64,000 nt of DNA from a virus. The stretch covers positions 64,001 through 128,000 of IMG/VR virus record IMGVR_UViG_3300022752_000023; one strand, 5' to 3'. Position 1 is the first letter of the stretch; every line of letters starts with the position of its first letter. The notes beneath the pieces are model-generated. The model was not told the origin of the DNA, made no database searches, and saw only the letters and a list, made by a program, of their open reading frames with translations. Made by a program: the position numbers and the translations under genes. Of this stretch, positions 7,259 to 30,744 are shown one piece after another.

Positions 7259-7494
7259 TGTTGGCGTTCTTGCCTCGTGGGAATCCTTTTCGGGTATTTC
7301 TCTGGATGACAAACCTGACAACGCGCGCGAGTACAACCGCAGCTCCGCAAAGTTTTACGATACCGTCCAGCTTCGCGCGCGGTTTGTTCTGCGTTTTCAA
7401 CCCAACTACCAAACTCCAACCACCCGGCATTAATTTGTCGGTGCTGTTTTACTCGGCGTTCGATGATGTGTTTTTCGGCGTGGTAGCGTTTCAT
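7240..7494 (-). CDS. small basic Cys/His-cluster hypothetical protein
   Basis: GRYRK...CGC...CQVCHP motif; fits operon packing. Confidence 0.65.
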   Translation of the reverse strand: MKRYHAEKHIIERRVKQHRQINAGWLEFGSWVENAEQTAREAGRYRKTLRSCGCTRARCQVCHPEKYPKRIPTRQERQQWPESE

Positions 7495-7497
7495 GTT

Positions 7498-7950
7498 TTA
7501 TCTGCCGTCTGTTTCGCAGTAGATTACAAATGTACAACCGCACTGCTGCGCAAGCCTTACAACGTTTGGCGCGTACACAGAGACGATTTTTGTTTTGTCT
7601 ATTTTGTTATCAGCGATTAACGCTAGAAGACCCAGCTTTGCAATTCCGCGTCGCCGGTATTCAGGGTCAACAAAACATTCGACCGTTTGTACAACTGTCG
7701 GGCGACCTTTGAAATTTTCGGTCCACGGGCGCGTTCCAACCCAGCCTGCTAGCGTTTCGTCTACCCAGATGAGCGCGAGGGCCATTTCTGGGTGCGGCTG
7801 CTCGTGATTGACGTGCAGATAACGCTTAGCGAGTTCTTTTTGAATTGAGCTGTCGCTGCCAGAATCCGGCCACGACAATCTTGTCATGATCGCCGTCACA
7901 TCGACCAGCCCGAGGCGGTTGATATCTTTGATTTTGATCGAAATATCCAC
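7498..7950 (-). CDS. GNAT family N-acetyltransferase
   Basis: FVDPEYRRRGIAK acetyl-CoA binding motif A; GGAGG SD before GTG. Confidence 0.85.
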   Translation of the reverse strand: MDISIKIKDINRLGLVDVTAIMTRLSWPDSGSDSSIQKELAKRYLHVNHEQPHPEMALALIWVDETLAGWVGTRPWTENFKGRPTVVQTVECFVDPEYRRRGIAKLGLLALIADNKIDKTKIVSVYAPNVVRLAQQCGCTFVIYCETDGR

Positions 7951-7977
7951 AGCTGGTCCTCCGTGACCAACTATGGA
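7946..7977 (-). promoter_or_regulatory. CsrA-type RBS hairpin (13-bp stem, ACGGAG loop) sequestering the GTG start of the GNAT gene
   Basis: UCCAUAGUUGGUC-ACGGAG-GACCAGCUGUGGA; both non-Watson-Crick pairs are G.U on the - strand. Confidence 0.7.
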
Positions 7978-7988
7978 GTATACATTAG

Positions 7989-8192
7989 CGCGGTAGGCGG
8001 GAGTCGAACCCGCTGCAGTAGATTTTCGGCCCGTCCGTCATTTCGGCAATTAAGTATGCGCACTTTTGCACACCGGAGATCAATCCGGCGGTAAATCACT
8101 CGCTCGCATACACCGGCTTCGTCCGCTCAGGTGATCAACCCATATCCGTCTACTGCATCAAGCGTTAAGCGCGCGCCCCGCGCATCTACCGC
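7989..8192 (-). ncRNA. tRNA/tmRNA-like structured RNA of unknown class (~204 nt)
   Basis: 7-bp acceptor stem GCGGUAG/CUACCGC, T arm GCGGG-UUCGACU-CCCGC, 9-bp UGCAGUAGA/UCUACUGCA helix enclosing a 126-nt insert. Confidence 0.75.
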
Positions 8193-8196
8193 AAAG

Positions 8197-8267
8197 AGCC
8201 CCCAGAAGGAATCAAACCCTCATCGGCTGATTACAAATCAGCTGCATTATCATTATGCTATGGGGGC
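8197..8267 (-). tRNA. tRNA-Thr(UGU), CCA not encoded
   Basis: Cloverleaf GCCCCCA/TGGGGGC, D arm GCAT/ATGC, anticodon arm GCTGA-TTTGTAA-TCAGC, T arm GAGGG-TTTGATT-CCTTC (variant T loop). Confidence 0.85.
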
Positions 8268-8690
8268 ATTTTTATTTGGCCATTTGAACTGTTTAGCTGT
8301 TTTTCGTCTGTGGCAATTTGCGCAGCGAACGACGCATTTTTTTATTTCGTGTGCTACGGCTTTTGCGCTGCAGTTTTTAAGTCGCGACACACTGTTTAGT
8401 TTTTGTCCGCGAACGTGGTCAAATTCTAGTACAACCGGATCGCTTTCACCGCAATCGACGCAGGGGTGTGTGCTTAAATATTCGCAGATAAACTCGTGCG
8501 CTTTGTTTCGTGCTGCTCGACGATTTAGTTTTATGTACTGCCGCCGGTGCGGGTGCTCGGCGTAATGCTCGCGATCGTACTTTTGTTTGCACGGCCGGCA
8601 CATACTTGCGCAACCCGTCTTTGTTGCCGCGCGTTTTTGAAATTCTGTATACGGTTTTGTTTTTTTACACCGCGTACATTTTTTTTGCAT
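8253..8690 (-). CDS. HNH endonuclease with N-terminal zinc ribbon
   Basis: CTRC/CRPC, CVDCGE.DPVVLEFDHV...EIKKCVVRCANCHRRKT. Confidence 0.88.
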   Translation of the reverse strand: MQKKCTRCKKTKPYTEFQKRAATKTGCASMCRPCKQKYDREHYAEHPHRRQYIKLNRRAARNKAHEFICEYLSTHPCVDCGESDPVVLEFDHVRGQKLNSVSRLKNCSAKAVAHEIKKCVVRCANCHRRKTAKQFKWPNKNAPIA

Positions 8691-8718
8691 GTCGTCGTTC
8701 CTCCATGAACGTACGACA
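8690..8718 (-). promoter_or_regulatory. CsrA-type RBS hairpin (AUGGAG loop) of the HNH gene
   Basis: CGUUC-AUGGAG-GAACG, extendable by UGUCGU/ACGACA. Confidence 0.65.
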
Positions 8719-8747
8719 ATTTTAACAATTACAAATCAAGACTACAA
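8719..8747 (-). promoter_or_regulatory. sigma70-like promoter for the HNH-tRNA-ncRNA unit
   Basis: TTGTAG-N17-TAAAAT with TGn extended -10. Confidence 0.5.
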
Positions 8748-8748
8748 G

Positions 8749-9216
8749 TCATTTAAAGGCTGTTATTAAACCAGTTGGCCAATGGTACGGCAAGTCGATA
8801 GGTTCTTGCCAACCGAACCGCGAATAGTGGCGAAAGTCTTTGCGCAGTAGATTGCTGCGGTGGCTGGCATGAAACTGCGCGTCGCCAATCCACGGCGGAT
8901 ATACGTTGCGTTCGATTGTGTCGCGCAGCGCTGTGTAGCTGTCCATGAACTGCGGGCACAACGTATCGTTAAACCCGCGGCGTATCCATTCGCGGCACAC
9001 GACTATGGCGTATACGGTTAGCGCTGTCTCGTATCCAGCCCACATGCGCACGGCCGGATGATTGCGCCAGCTACTTGTTCCGGGCTCGTGTTCTCCTACC
9101 GGAACGCCAAGGCAGAGTAGGATCTGCTTACATTCAACCCTTTGCTTGCCGAGCCTTTTGTTATCAAGGCAAGCGGCCGAGTGTTTAAATCTCGGCAGCG
9201 GCAGGAAAGTTTGCAT
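8749..9216 (-). CDS. pyrimidine dimer DNA glycosylase / MSMEG_6728 family protein
   Basis: MQTFLP...LDNKRLGKQRVE..QI...HPAVRMW.GYE...FHASHRSNLLRKD. Confidence 0.88.
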   Translation of the reverse strand: MQTFLPLPRFKHSAACLDNKRLGKQRVECKQILLCLGVPVGEHEPGTSSWRNHPAVRMWAGYETALTVYAIVVCREWIRRGFNDTLCPQFMDSYTALRDTIERNVYPPWIGDAQFHASHRSNLLRKDFRHYSRFGWQEPIDLPYHWPTGLITAFK

Positions 9217-9220
9217 TTAA

Positions 9221-9535
9221 TCAGTCGTCAAACTCGTCGTCAAAGTTTTCTTCGTATTCAGGGTCGTCATCCTCTTCGTCCTCGTATTCTTCGTCCCAGT
9301 CTTCGTCGTCGTCACCCCACTCTTCGTCTTCCTCGTCTTCTTCTTCGTCATCGTCGTCTGTGAAGACGTAGTTGGGTTTTGGAAGATCAATGTCGCTGTC
9401 TTCATCGTCGTCGTCATCGTCGTCGTTGACAAATTGCCACTCTTCTTCGATGAAGTCATCATCGAGTCCGTCGTCATGGCGGGCGGCTGTCTCATCTACT
9501 TGGCGGCGAAACGACGTCGATTCAAAGTAGCGCAT
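9221..9535 (-). CDS. extremely acidic small protein
   Basis: 104 aa, more than half D/E; fills the gap between neighbours exactly. Confidence 0.7.
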   Translation of the reverse strand: MRYFESTSFRRQVDETAARHDDGLDDDFIEEEWQFVNDDDDDDDEDSDIDLPKPNYVFTDDDDEEEDEEDEEWGDDDEDWDEEYEDEEDDDPEYEENFDDEFDD

Positions 9536-13794: not shown

Positions 13795-14039
13795 TTGAAA
13801 ACTAACTCCTTCAGTTTTGTTATCAATTCGCGCACACCCCACCGGGTCGGCGCCGGCACTGCGCGCGCCGGCACTTCGCCCGGCTCAATGTTTTGAGAAG
13901 ATAAGCCGCCCGACTGTTCGGCTAACCCGCTTCGACAGTATTCGAGGTAGAGTTGCCAGTTGTCGTAAGAATCTCTGTCTTCGGCTCGTTCGTATGGGAT
14001 GTAGGGTGGCTCGTCTGGGACTCTGTCGTTCCAGCCCAT
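13791..14039 (-). CDS. hypothetical protein
   Basis: 82 aa ORF overlapping the csrA tail; AAGGA upstream. Confidence 0.55.
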   Translation of the reverse strand: MGWNDRVPDEPPYIPYERAEDRDSYDNWQLYLEYCRSGLAEQSGGLSSQNIEPGEVPARAVPAPTRWGVRELITKLKELVFK

Positions 14040-14212
14040 TGCTTTTTGTCCTTCTTTTTAGTTCCGTCAATTAACTCGCCGCGCACTATCGTTGTTGTTT
14101 GCGGCGCAGTTAATCCAATCTTGACTCGATCGCCTGTGATTCCCAAAACTTTCACAACGATTCCGTCGCCAATTACAACTTCCTGTTCTTTCTTCCTTGA
14201 GAGTACAAGCAT
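13922..14212 (-). CDS. csrA: carbon storage regulator CsrA/RsmA family RNA-binding protein
   Basis: MLVLSRKKEQEVVIGDGIVVKVLGITGDRVKIGLTAPQTTTIVRGEL matches the CsrA fold, including the RNA-contacting Arg of the R.E motif. Confidence 0.92.
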   Translation of the reverse strand: MLVLSRKKEQEVVIGDGIVVKVLGITGDRVKIGLTAPQTTTIVRGELIDGTKKKDKKQWAGTTESQTSHPTSHTNEPKTEILTTTGNSTSNTVEAG

Positions 14213-17210: not shown

Positions 17211-17290
17211 TCGCCGCCCCGCGCTGCCTAAGAGCATGAAGCCCGGAGGTTACGTGGCACGTAACCTTTCGGCAGACCGCAGGGCGGCGA
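17211..17290 (-). other. three-way-junction RNA structure / possible terminator at the end of the structural region
   Basis: TCGCCGCCCTGCG/CGCGGGGCGGCGA plus CTGCC/GGCAG stem enclosing two hairpins, followed by TTGCATTTTCCATTTT. Confidence 0.5.
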
Positions 17291-28545: not shown

Positions 28546-30744
28546 TTAACACGGCGCCTCTGTTTTACCTTCAGCGTTGCAGTGCAATGTTTGCGTGACT
28601 TCGGCAATTGCTGGTAGCGGCGGCAAACCGTCATCTAGGTTATTTCCGCAGTTTGTTAAGATCGGTTGCGCTGTGCTTAAATATGTGCCGGTCAGCGTAC
28701 CGGTGATCACGTATGGCCCGCGTGCGCGCGTACTTTCGGCTTCTGGATTATTCGGGTCATACTGGTTGAATTTAACACGAAACTGTACGTACGCGGAGTC
28801 GCCGGGTTTTAGTTGCGGCAACGCGGCCGAGTATTGAAAACCGCCGCCAGCCACTGAAATACCGACTGCGTTACCGCGTATTCCCGGCGCATACATAGTC
28901 GTGTAGCCGCATTCCAGTTCCGGCCTAACCGCGACAGATGTTTGCGTCTCTGGATCTGACAGCACCAGATCGCCGCTCACTGACAGGTTTAGTGTTAACC
29001 GTGTGGGTTCAACGCATTTGTCACATGGGTTACACAGCATCATGACGATGTCCAAATAAGGACACCGCTGCGGTACCATGATTAAACGTAGCGGGCGTTG
29101 AATGCTGCACGCACGCTGATCAAGCCAGCGCGCGATGTTGTTTTCATGCTCGGTTCGCACCTTCTCGGCGCGCTGGCCGATGAGTTTGTACCTGTAACTT
29201 GTTTCGTTCATGTATTTTGCCGTGTTGGCGTAGTCGTCGCAGCCGCAACACGGGACACAGTCGGCGCCAATTTGTTGTTGCGCCGTTGTTGACGGGTTAA
29301 CCGGGTGCGGCGCGGCTAGCCCGACAGTAACAGGCCGCCTAACCCATAAACAATCCGTCGCGCCGAATCTAAAATCTCCGTTTGTTCCCGCGACGCCGTT
29401 GATTTTTGTAATCGGGACGGCTGCGCCTTCTGGGCAGGCGCCGTAGCGGCCAAGTCCTGTGCCGGCTACTGCGCTAAAATTTACGCGGGTGATGTTTCGG
29501 AAATTTTTTGTTTCTGCCGGCGCGGCGACGATTTCGGTGTTGTACCCGTTTTCAAACTTAAACGCGCCAGCGTACCGCGGCGATGTTGTCTGCCCGTTGC
29601 GAACGCGCATAGACAATAGCCGCCGCGGCATCTTGTACACAGCGCGCTCGTCAATTTTGGCGTTCAACGGCGTCAGATACAAATCGTAAGTTTTTTCTGT
29701 GTCGTCATCAATGAACCCGTTGTCTGCGTCCGGCCACTTCTTGTGCGCGATTAATCGACATGTAGCGTTTTTCATGCGCCACTCAACCGCTGTATAAATT
29801 GTGTCCGAATCAAAAATCGCGCATGACGTCTCATTTTCTGCGGCAGTCGTGTCCACAATTACGCAGTTGTCTGCGTCCACCACGACGATATCAGCTTGAT
29901 GCGCTGGCGTAGGAAAATTTGCGTCTGGTGTGTTTTCGTTGCAACCAAAACCGTACAAGTATTTTATGCGCAATGGGTGTTTGGCTTTTTTTACGCTGTT
30001 GTCGTACTCGCCTTTGTCGTCATAGCTTAAATGAAAATCGGCGATTAAATAACTGATGTCATCTGACGGATTTACCAGCGGGTAATCAACACCGCTCTGC
30101 GGTTGCACAACGCCGACCCCGCGGCGGCTGCGAGCGTCAAATGCAAACTGGTTGTACGCGTTGATTGCGGTTTTTAGCGCAAGTTCAGCTGCAACAATCG
30201 CGGCTATGCGTATAGGTAACAACGCGGTATGCGTATTGATATCGTTTATTATGTAACCGCGCTCATTTTGTGCAGCAGCTATTTTTGCATATTGGGCCTG
30301 TATTGCATCAAGCAACCATTGCGGCGGCGAGTCCCCTTGTTCTTGCATACTCGTGACGCTATCGAGCAGGGCTTGTAGTTGCACTAACAGCGCTGCAATA
30401 AAAATGTCGATAAGCGTTAACCGAATATTTAATGCTTCTATTGCTTTTTCGCTTATTTCTTTTTCGGCTATAGCGAAATCGTATTCAAGTTGCCGAATAG
30501 TCTTGATGACCACAAAACGGCGCAATTGCTTGCAGTATCGTTCAAAAGCGTAAAGAAGCGGTGCACCGACTTCCAGCGCCGCAAGCCTGTTTGTTAGCGC
30601 GAGCAACTCGTCGTTTAACTGCGCAATTTCTTCCGCGCGTAATGCGTTTTGTTGCTCGCGTGCGAGTATTTCTTGCTCTAACGCCGGCACCGCGGCATTA
30701 CCGGCGAGATATTCATTCGTATATTGATGCGTAAACGCGCTCAT
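28546..30744 (-). CDS. virion structural protein, YP/ING paralogue with N-terminal coiled coil
   Basis: DYPL, ITKINGV, PCCGC motifs. Confidence 0.75.
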   Translation of the reverse strand: MSAFTHQYTNEYLAGNAAVPALEQEILAREQQNALRAEEIAQLNDELLALTNRLAALEVGAPLLYAFERYCKQLRRFVVIKTIRQLEYDFAIAEKEISEKAIEALNIRLTLIDIFIAALLVQLQALLDSVTSMQEQGDSPPQWLLDAIQAQYAKIAAAQNERGYIINDINTHTALLPIRIAAIVAAELALKTAINAYNQFAFDARSRRGVGVVQPQSGVDYPLVNPSDDISYLIADFHLSYDDKGEYDNSVKKAKHPLRIKYLYGFGCNENTPDANFPTPAHQADIVVVDADNCVIVDTTAAENETSCAIFDSDTIYTAVEWRMKNATCRLIAHKKWPDADNGFIDDDTEKTYDLYLTPLNAKIDERAVYKMPRRLLSMRVRNGQTTSPRYAGAFKFENGYNTEIVAAPAETKNFRNITRVNFSAVAGTGLGRYGACPEGAAVPITKINGVAGTNGDFRFGATDCLWVRRPVTVGLAAPHPVNPSTTAQQQIGADCVPCCGCDDYANTAKYMNETSYRYKLIGQRAEKVRTEHENNIARWLDQRACSIQRPLRLIMVPQRCPYLDIVMMLCNPCDKCVEPTRLTLNLSVSGDLVLSDPETQTSVAVRPELECGYTTMYAPGIRGNAVGISVAGGGFQYSAALPQLKPGDSAYVQFRVKFNQYDPNNPEAESTRARGPYVITGTLTGTYLSTAQPILTNCGNNLDDGLPPLPAIAEVTQTLHCNAEGKTEAPC

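Follow-up and report, generated by a model that had tools for sequence, protein, structure and literature searches.

In bacteriophage T4, northern blots revealed RNAC and RNAD, which were classed as late RNAs of unknown function (PMC9697503, PMC3014915), and their genes follow, in the T4 record, the order segB, tRNA-Arg, rnaD, and rnaC. In bacteriophage T5, RNA1 (AY543070, misc_RNA 30501-30644) is annotated as a "tRNA-like stable RNA with unknown functions" and has RNAI, RNAIII, and RNA2H as its neighbours. Here, we describe a 204-nucleotide (nt) gene for a transfer RNA (tRNA)-shaped RNA, hereafter the element, located in a 64,000-nt stretch of DNA from a large uncultured phage (positions 64,001 to 128,000 of IMG/VR record IMGVR_UViG_3300022752_000023), which is referred to as the window. 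As judged from its sequence, the element is a well-formed gene for an RNA of a kind that is known but unexplained; it has no sequence relatives and was gained beside a homing endonuclease.

Relation to described tRNA-like RNAs

Phage tRNA-like stable RNAs are a kind defined by architecture and setting, not by descent, and by analogy the element is of the same kind as T4 RNAC/RNAD and T5 RNA1. It shares two properties with them, as it adjoins a tRNA gene accompanied by a homing endonuclease and has a tRNA-type acceptor/T-arm end without an anticodon arm. In T4, as in the window, a homing endonuclease, a tRNA, and one or more tRNA-like RNAs stand in this order, and rnaC ends, like the element, in a T arm (CCGGG-UUCGAAU-CCCGG) and an acceptor-like closure. 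However, the T4 species 1 and 2 RNAs are 139 nt (rnaC) and 119 nt (rnaD) long, compared with 204 nt for the element, and SegB is a GIY-YIG endonuclease, whereas that of the window belongs to the HNH type; furthermore, rnaC as annotated has an imperfectly paired acceptor, its inserts are arranged otherwise, and it has no sequence similarity to the element. T5 RNA1 (~144 nt) likewise lies in a phage tRNA region interspersed with HNH endonucleases (F-TflI and F-TflII), and it combines a tRNA-type T arm and acceptor closure with a large insert at the place of the anticodon arm. In contrast to the element, RNA1 has a D arm of the leucine type, and its T arm is preceded by a separate hairpin; the element has a G+C hairpin at the D position, a single helix of 9 base pairs (bp) abutting the T arm, and a larger insert. 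No sequence homology between the element and the T4 or T5 members was found by blastn against 50,697 GenBank phage records.

The same architecture is found in engineered tRNA scaffolds, where a hairpin-forming insert takes the place of the anticodon stem-loop (Ponchon and Dardel; PMC3753655). In Escherichia coli, such scaffolds are precisely processed and accumulate stably with structured inserts of up to at least 250 nt (PMC3753655). They place acceptor, T, and D arms around a helix-closed insert, and this shell also guards the RNA against decay; being man-made, they demonstrate that the principle works, not that the element uses it. YrlA-type bacterial Y RNAs have been described as non-coding RNAs bearing a tRNA-like module, also present in phages (PMC4201824), but these RNAs (RF02553) are circularly permuted with respect to the element, their ends being located in the Ro-binding stem. 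Transfer-messenger RNA (tmRNA, RF00023) resembles the element in its acceptor and T arm, a long helix leaving beside the T arm, and a large inserted domain.

Anatomy of the element

The element is encoded on the minus strand, with its nucleotide 1 at window position 8192 and its nucleotide 204 at position 7989. The element, its parts, and the preceding tRNA gene are listed below in 5'-to-3' order.

8197-8267, minus strand: tRNA-Thr(UGU), recognized by Rfam (64.9 bits) and ARAGORN
7989-8192, minus strand: tRNA-shaped RNA gene, from the acceptor 5' end to the discriminator, 204 nt (from sequence, fold, pair probabilities, and chance control)
8186-8192, minus strand: acceptor 5' strand GCGGUAG, pairing perfectly with 7990-7996
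8169-8183, minus strand: D-position hairpin GCGCG-GGGCG-CGCGC, non-canonical (sequence reading)
8158-8168, minus strand: linker UUAACGCUUGA, 11 nt, unpaired (sequence and layout comparison)
8149-8157, minus strand: closing helix, 5' strand UGCAGUAGA, pairing with 8014-8022
8023-8148, minus strand: cargo domain, 126 nt, with three predicted hairpins
8014-8022, minus strand: closing helix, 3' strand UCUACUGCA, abutting the T arm with zero nt between
7997-8013, minus strand: T arm GCGGG-UUCGACU-CCCGC, canonical, with a T-stem pair probability of 0.93
7990-7996, minus strand: acceptor 3' strand CUACCGC (sequence reading)

The top half of a tRNA is intact in the element, comprising a perfect 7-bp acceptor, a canonical T arm, and the 9-bp helix. 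All seven acceptor pairs are of the Watson-Crick type (pair probability 1.0), and both the 7-bp acceptor and the 5-bp T stem with a GUUCRANYC-type loop agree with the canonical tRNA family (RF00005). The discriminator is G (7989), followed by CUA, so that no CCA is encoded. Departures from a tRNA begin after the acceptor 5' strand, where positions 8 and 9 are A8 and U9, replacing the usual U8. They precede the D-position hairpin, whose 5 bp are all G+C and enclose the loop GGGCG; it folds in two competing registers (pair probabilities 0.43 and 0.33) and receives no score from the Rfam tRNA model. The linker UUAACGCUUGA resembles an anticodon stem's 5' strand together with the first part of the loop, of the Ile-GAU type; however, its AACGC has no pairing partner in the element, and an anticodon stem-loop (5 bp with a 7-nt loop) is absent, which is why the element cannot read codons. 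The anticodon-arm position is occupied instead by 144 folded nt, made up of the 126-nt cargo and the perfect 9-bp closing helix around it (pair probability 0.8-1.0). The predicted cargo hairpins are GGGU/ACCU (8141-8129), GUAUGCG/CGCAUAC (8111-8054; pair probability 0.44), and CCGGA/UCCGG (8088-8073; 0.95). In a preliminary description made from the window sequence, the acceptor, the discriminator G followed by CUA, the T arm, the non-standard D region, the 9-bp helix enclosing 126 nt, and the two inner helices GUAUGCG/CGCAUAC and CCGGA/UCCGG had been outlined, all of which are present. Its placement of the RNA 4 nt after tRNA-Thr is also correct, the two being separated by the spacer CUUU (8196-8193).

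A motif UUGAUC(A) occurs in the loops of two cargo hairpins (8138-8132 and 8083-8078, or element nucleotides 55-61 and 110-115), and UUGAU is found in the linker as well. The self-complementary GAUC core of both loops could form an intramolecular kissing contact or support dimerization.

As a chance control, both strands of the 144-kilobase (kb) genome were scanned for a T arm joined to a 7-bp acceptor, in parallel with 40 first-order Markov resamples. The genome contained two such matches, of which the element alone also has an abutting helix of at least 8 bp; the resamples contained a mean of 0.2 T-arm-plus-acceptor matches and none with an abutting helix. The combination of acceptor, T arm, and abutting helix is far beyond chance.

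Comparison with known RNA families

At gathering-level thresholds, the Rfam search of the whole window assigned the element to no family. With the limit relaxed to E <= 10 on 7900-8300, its 17-nt T arm, and this alone, matched the tmRNA model (RF00023) at 13.8-16.6 bits against a cut-off of 47, whereas the tRNA model (RF00005) gave no match to the element at E <= 10. Against a cut-off of 69 bits, the YrlA model (RF02553) reached 13.4, and this on a shifted stretch. No group I intron or other ribozyme in Rfam matched, even at E <= 10, and 126-144 nt is below the known sizes of group I introns; the preliminary description had likewise considered the insert short for one.

ARAGORN, which was run in its default, intron, tmRNA, and mitochondrial modes, made no call on the element at default settings. 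When relaxed, it drew the element as a tRNA-Pro(UGG) interrupted by a 127-nt intron, with just 2-3 pairs in the anticodon stem. When single segments were deleted from the element, default ARAGORN called a tRNA in 0/937 and 0/1012 cases. For the three look-alikes described below (L132, L137, and L145), more than half of arbitrary deletions were called tRNA, making the test unspecific there; it is therefore informative for the window element as a negative only. In tmRNA mode, nothing was reported at default stringency, and at 70% stringency there was one spurious permuted call on the opposite strand. The hallmarks of tmRNA are missing, as had been claimed before: the 3:70 pair is G-C and not G.U, position 73 is G and not A, and the frame that starts from UAAUU-GCC-GAA runs through the T arm and acceptor to a stop found only past the discriminator. 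The 144-kb contig (estimated to be 71% complete) carries no gene for SmpB, Ro60/TROVE, RtcB, or a CCA-adding enzyme. The element is thus neither a decoding or intron-bearing tRNA nor a tmRNA, and it belongs to no Rfam family; neither Rfam nor ARAGORN provides the strong match to a known family that would make it a familiar RNA. The earlier claim of novelty stands for the sequence, which has no homologue in anything searched, but not for the kind, which is known from T4 RNAC/RNAD and T5 RNA1 in the same setting.

Full-length tmRNAs are present in three related ~200-kb phages (L092 862-1212, L093 661-1015, and L094 926-1269, minus strand), where they score 97-145 bits with RF00023 inside a small tRNA cluster and are not called by ARAGORN. 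They have no sequence similarity to the element, and the tmRNA/tRNA region has no counterpart on the contig of the window, at its estimated completeness. Two of these phages also carry an identical 70-nt tRNA-like gene (L092 1916-1985 and L094 1821-1890, minus strand) that is called by neither of the two programs, ARAGORN and Rfam; its acceptor and T arm are well formed, its D region is unusual, and the loop of its anticodon arm reads UCUUAUUAA. In another phage tRNA array, beside an HNH homologue, a sub-threshold YrlA-like RNA (L032 4352-4447; 29.8 bits, E = 1.4e-4) lies next to a 93- or 263-nt RNA (4452/4626-4718) with a tmRNA-type acceptor GGGGCUG/CAGCUCC (G3.U70) and a T arm, scoring 31.5 bits and below the cut-off.

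Locus and insertion history

The neighbouring features needed for the comparison with related phages are the following.

8749-9216, minus strand: pyrimidine-dimer DNA glycosylase (denV-like), upstream of the insertion (Pfam PF03013, E = 3e-19)
8253-8690, minus strand: HNH homing-endonuclease gene (phrog_2255, E = 1.4e-33)
7973-7983, minus strand: junction GUAUACUCCAU, from alignment with relatives
7498-7950, minus strand: GNAT acetyltransferase gene, the downstream neighbour (Pfam PF00583, E = 7.7e-8)

The gene order in the window is glycosylase, HNH endonuclease (whose 3' end overlaps the start of tRNA-Thr), tRNA-Thr, element, GUAUACUCCAU, and GNAT. Seven related phages, mostly of ~200 kb and with GNAT proteins 64-84% identical to that of the window, have instead the denV-like glycosylase, one tRNA-Thr(UGU) of other sequence, GUAUACUCCAU...CACGGAGGAC, and GNAT. 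Both the HNH gene and the 204-nt element are missing at the locus in all seven, and no copy of the element occurs elsewhere in the complete genomes of the relatives. Because GUAUACUCCAU directly follows tRNA-Thr in the relatives, it marks the right edge of a lineage-specific insertion. The extra DNA ends within a few nt of both element ends, which indicates that the unit gained was a complete gene-sized module and not a random fragment.

Downstream of the closest homologues of the HNH protein (L010 and L011; 80% protein identity) come a tRNA-Thr that shares 96% identity with the tRNA-Thr of the window and, directly after it, a GNAT-like gene, without the element. The HNH family resides in phage tRNA arrays: tRNAs lie within 2.5 kb at 61/80 of its loci, and 40/80 have a tRNA within 90 nt downstream. 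From this comparison of loci, it follows that the ancestral tRNA-Thr was replaced by a mobile HNH/tRNA-Thr cassette; the element, to judge by the aligned sequences, fills exactly the space from this cassette to the old junction and is a lineage-specific insertion. It is not a decayed copy of the ancestral tRNA-Thr, since the two differ by four compensated differences in the acceptor and T stems.

Several further observations concern the surroundings. GNAT directly follows tRNA-Thr in nine related or cassette-bearing contigs (L003-L011), and its ribosome-binding site in the window lies in the hairpin GGUC-ACGGAG-GACC (7953-7966, minus strand). On the strand of the element, no sigma-70-like promoter and no terminator were detected from 7300 to 9400. 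An attP/integration-site reading of the locus was rejected, as the contig (71% complete) has no tyrosine integrase. For a neighbouring 562-aa protein, tblastn returned no match in GenBank phages, and Rfam identified a DUF3800-VIII RNA at 17213-17288 of the window (minus strand; 44.8 bits, with a gathering score of 40.2).

RNAs of similar layout

In the blastn search of GenBank phages, the tRNA-Thr part alone of the query was matched. Exact-pattern scans of IMG/VR with an internal 18-mer and with the 5' end gave no match, and the scan with the 3' end gave one unrelated-looking match (L002). The latter (L002 2420-2575) is a ~155-nt gap between tRNA-Met and tRNA-Ile in a phage array of 26 tRNAs, which ends in the same T arm plus CUACCGC; its 5' end pairs by only 5 bp, and a 10-bp helix lies within it. 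The gap may hold either a further tRNA-shaped RNA or the decayed remains of one.

Scans of genome contigs and metagenomes for the T arm plus 3' acceptor strand retrieved mostly ordinary tRNA-Gly, tRNA-His, and tRNA-Leu genes; this end of the element is typical of some tRNA-Leu(UAA) genes (L135, L140, L142, and L144). Another candidate, L104, was discarded as just a 3' tRNA fragment. Two contigs, however, contain look-alikes (L132 80-204 and L137 1390-1514), each 125 nt long and on an AT-rich metagenome contig, and a follow-up IMG/VR scan added a third (L145 3985-4109). These and the element have a common layout, in which 2 nt separate the acceptor from a D region (15-16 nt) and a linker, U(U)AAYGCUUGA, leads into a closing helix of 5-9 bp; the enclosed insert measures 52-126 nt, and 0-2 nt precede the T arm plus acceptor. 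This layout was set by hand in a script, MAFFT having misaligned the four sequences. The sequence of the closing helix differs in each lineage. L132 and L137 have an acceptor and T arm identical to those of the element and differ from each other inside helices by a compensatory pair and by a single A-U replaced with G.U, whereas L145 differs from the other three by compensatory changes in the acceptor and T stems. In contrast to the element, the three look-alikes are 125 nt long, lie on AT-rich contigs, carry unrelated inserts of 52-53 nt, and have UAAUGCUUGA, of the Leu-GAG type, at the linker position. They have a canonical leucine-type D arm where the element has its G+C hairpin, and because of this arm they score 33 bits on the Rfam tRNA model. 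Their sequences indicate that L132, L137, and L145 share the architecture of the element, possibly by descent. Two gapped IMG/VR scans combining the linker and the T loop produced 42 and 26 matches; apart from L145, these were promoter -35 boxes (TTGA...) preceding ordinary tRNAs and were not accepted as members. In most cases, therefore, TAAYGCTTGA denotes a -35 box, which is a further reservation about the linker shared by the look-alikes.

Further anticodon-less tRNA-shaped genes occur in tRNA arrays near HNH homologues (L043 805-924 and 1671-1800; L056 2202-2325), and the two genes of L043 share an insert module with a T-arm-like hairpin of its own (UUCCG-UUCGAUU-CGGAA). In addition, tRNA genes of ~100 nt were observed in Acidobacteriota genomes and in soil and peat metagenomes (L103 7256-7355, minus strand; L106 1135-1235; L123, L127, L129, L130, L138, and L139). 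They combine a leucine-type D arm, a very long variable arm, and A73 with the anticodon UGG, a reader of proline codons. None of them is called by ARAGORN, and they may constitute an unusual or mis-decoding class of tRNA.

Proposed role and alternative explanations

On balance, the element is probably a gene for a non-decoding tRNA-shaped RNA, in which a shell that serves RNase P and 3' processing and confers stability surrounds a 144-nt cargo. It would be co-transcribed with the HNH gene, tRNA-Thr, and the GNAT gene, and RNase P would cut its 5' end, thereby also freeing tRNA-Thr with a 4-nt trailer; its 3' end would then be trimmed, and CCA would probably be added by host enzymes. The acceptor/T-arm minihelix and the D-position hairpin would form the shell that directs precise processing and shields the RNA from decay, while the 144 nt closed by the 9-bp helix would be the working part, a folded cargo most likely binding a protein or another RNA. 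The gene probably arrived within or beside the mobile cassette that replaced the ancestral tRNA-Thr. The intact top half counts in favour of this proposal, as does the position 4 nt after a genuine tRNA, an arrangement that resembles polycistronic tRNA precursors. The absence of promoter- or terminator-like sites nearby on its strand fits co-transcription, and the gain of a whole gene-sized unit speaks for the proposal as well. By analogy, the recurring layout of the look-alikes, the T4 and T5 RNAs, the engineered scaffolds, and the genes of L043 and L056 also point in this direction. Among the three options offered in the preliminary description (a non-coding RNA processed and stabilized by means of a tRNA scaffold, a decoy directed at anticodon nucleases or SmpB, and a tRNA with an unusual intron), the scaffold option fits the evidence best.

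Several results weigh against the proposal. Since the seven nearest relatives manage without the element, it is dispensable for the lineage, and no homologue of the cargo was found in 1.33 megabases of collected loci or in GenBank phages. The link to the look-alikes is weakened because L132, L137, and L145 were retrieved with the 3' end of the element or their own 5' halves as queries, so that the queries came from these same sequences, and because an ordinary anticodon arm has a 5' half much like the shared linker. Given the non-canonical D region (A8 U9 and the G+C hairpin), a tRNA-like elbow may not form. The folding z-score of the whole molecule (-1.32) is unremarkable, a value that is not unusual among tRNA-like RNAs.

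A first alternative is that the element is a non-functional relic, either a tRNA-derived gene or a piece of the tRNA array of a donor phage, that was brought in by homing-endonuclease recombination, has not yet decayed, and would have no active transcript. In favour of a relic, the element is a singleton absent both from the seven relatives and from the cassettes of L010 and L011, with a degenerate D arm, an anticodon-arm remnant (AACGC-UUGAU) lacking its pairing partner, and a cargo without homologue; nevertheless, all three long helices (7, 5, and 9 bp) are perfect, which would be unexpected in a decaying gene, the inserted unit is exactly gene-sized, and the layout, unusual as it is, reappears in unrelated contigs with other helix sequences, so that we regard a relic as unlikely. 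A functional RNA might alternatively act as a decoy or sink for a factor that recognizes the acceptor/T-arm end of tRNAs, such as tRNA-targeting toxins or defence enzymes, CCA-modifying enzymes, or EF-Tu, and thus shield the real tRNAs of phage or host. The intact part of the element is exactly the acceptor/T-arm minihelix, it adjoins a phage tRNA, and phage tRNAs have themselves been proposed as a counter to tRNA-targeting defences (PMC10264068). Against this, the retention of a 144-nt structured cargo would be left unexplained, genes for the partners Ro60, RtcB, CCA enzyme, and SmpB are all missing from the contig, and an RNA without an anticodon stem-loop does not mimic the substrate of an anticodon nuclease, which makes the earlier suggestion of a decoy for such nucleases unlikely; a decoy of any sort has, in our estimate, only a small chance of being correct.

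The remaining explanations assign a specific activity to the cargo or to the tRNA-like part, and each is less probable again. The cargo could titrate the phage's own CsrA, as a small CsrB/RsmZ-like sponge on a tRNA shell: a clear CsrA-like protein is encoded at 13922-14212 (minus strand), GGA occurs four times in the element, including one GACGGA at each end of the cargo, and a third ACGGA lies 30 nt downstream in the ribosome-binding hairpin of GNAT. Known CsrA sponges, however, expose many GGA motifs in loops, whereas no GGA of the element falls in a hairpin loop of the predicted fold; four per 204 nt is about what composition predicts, and ACGGA is not enriched in the window (114 found versus 134 expected), leaving such a sponge quite improbable. 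Removal of an intron to give a working tRNA, as the relaxed ARAGORN drawing would have it, is very unlikely. L145 can indeed be drawn as a tRNA-Leu(GAG) whose anticodon stem is perfect and which a 50-nt intron interrupts at 37/38, but this drawing is common to neither L132, L137, nor the element, whose drawn anticodon stem has so few pairs and from which no deletion yields a default tRNA; the lack of a group I or ribozyme match, the small insert, and the absence of an RtcB ligase from the contig argue in the same direction, and the intron option of the preliminary description is not supported. Least credible, and to be given hardly any weight, is the reading as a tmRNA-like RNA in reduced form, entering ribosomes or binding SmpB. 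The acceptor, single-stranded stretch, and long helix abutting the T arm do resemble the tRNA-like domain of tmRNA, the T arm fits the tmRNA consensus, and related phages encode true tmRNAs. Nonetheless, the match to RF00023 is confined to the T arm and far below the cut-off, G3-C70 and G73 replace G3.U70 and A73, no tag frame has an in-domain stop, no SmpB gene was found on the contig, and the tmRNAs of the relatives are dissimilar in sequence, so the earlier suggestion of an SmpB/tmRNA-type role is not borne out.

Significance

Decades after they were first seen in T4 and T5, anticodon-less tRNA-like RNAs still lack an explanation. The element is one clear instance of such an RNA being recently acquired at a defined locus, and alone it gives no functional answer; together with the three look-alikes and the examples from neighbouring loci, it suggests that RNAs of this kind are widespread in uncultured phages and travel with homing endonucleases in tRNA arrays. 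It is a tentative idea, and one that we consider rather doubtful at present, that natural tRNA scaffolds serve phages as a general format for delivery, in which the tRNA shell exploits the tRNA processing and stability of the host, an exchangeable cargo sequesters a host or phage protein, for example the phage's CsrA or a defence factor, and the modules move between phages with homing endonucleases in tRNA arrays. Under this idea, the cargo of the element would be the 126-nt domain of three hairpins, two of whose loops carry the GAUC palindrome and could kiss or dimerize. If the reading of the element as a tRNA-like shell with a cargo is true, it would represent a natural counterpart of the engineered tRNA scaffold, and RNAs of this kind would constitute a pool of unknown phage regulatory or counter-defence RNAs.

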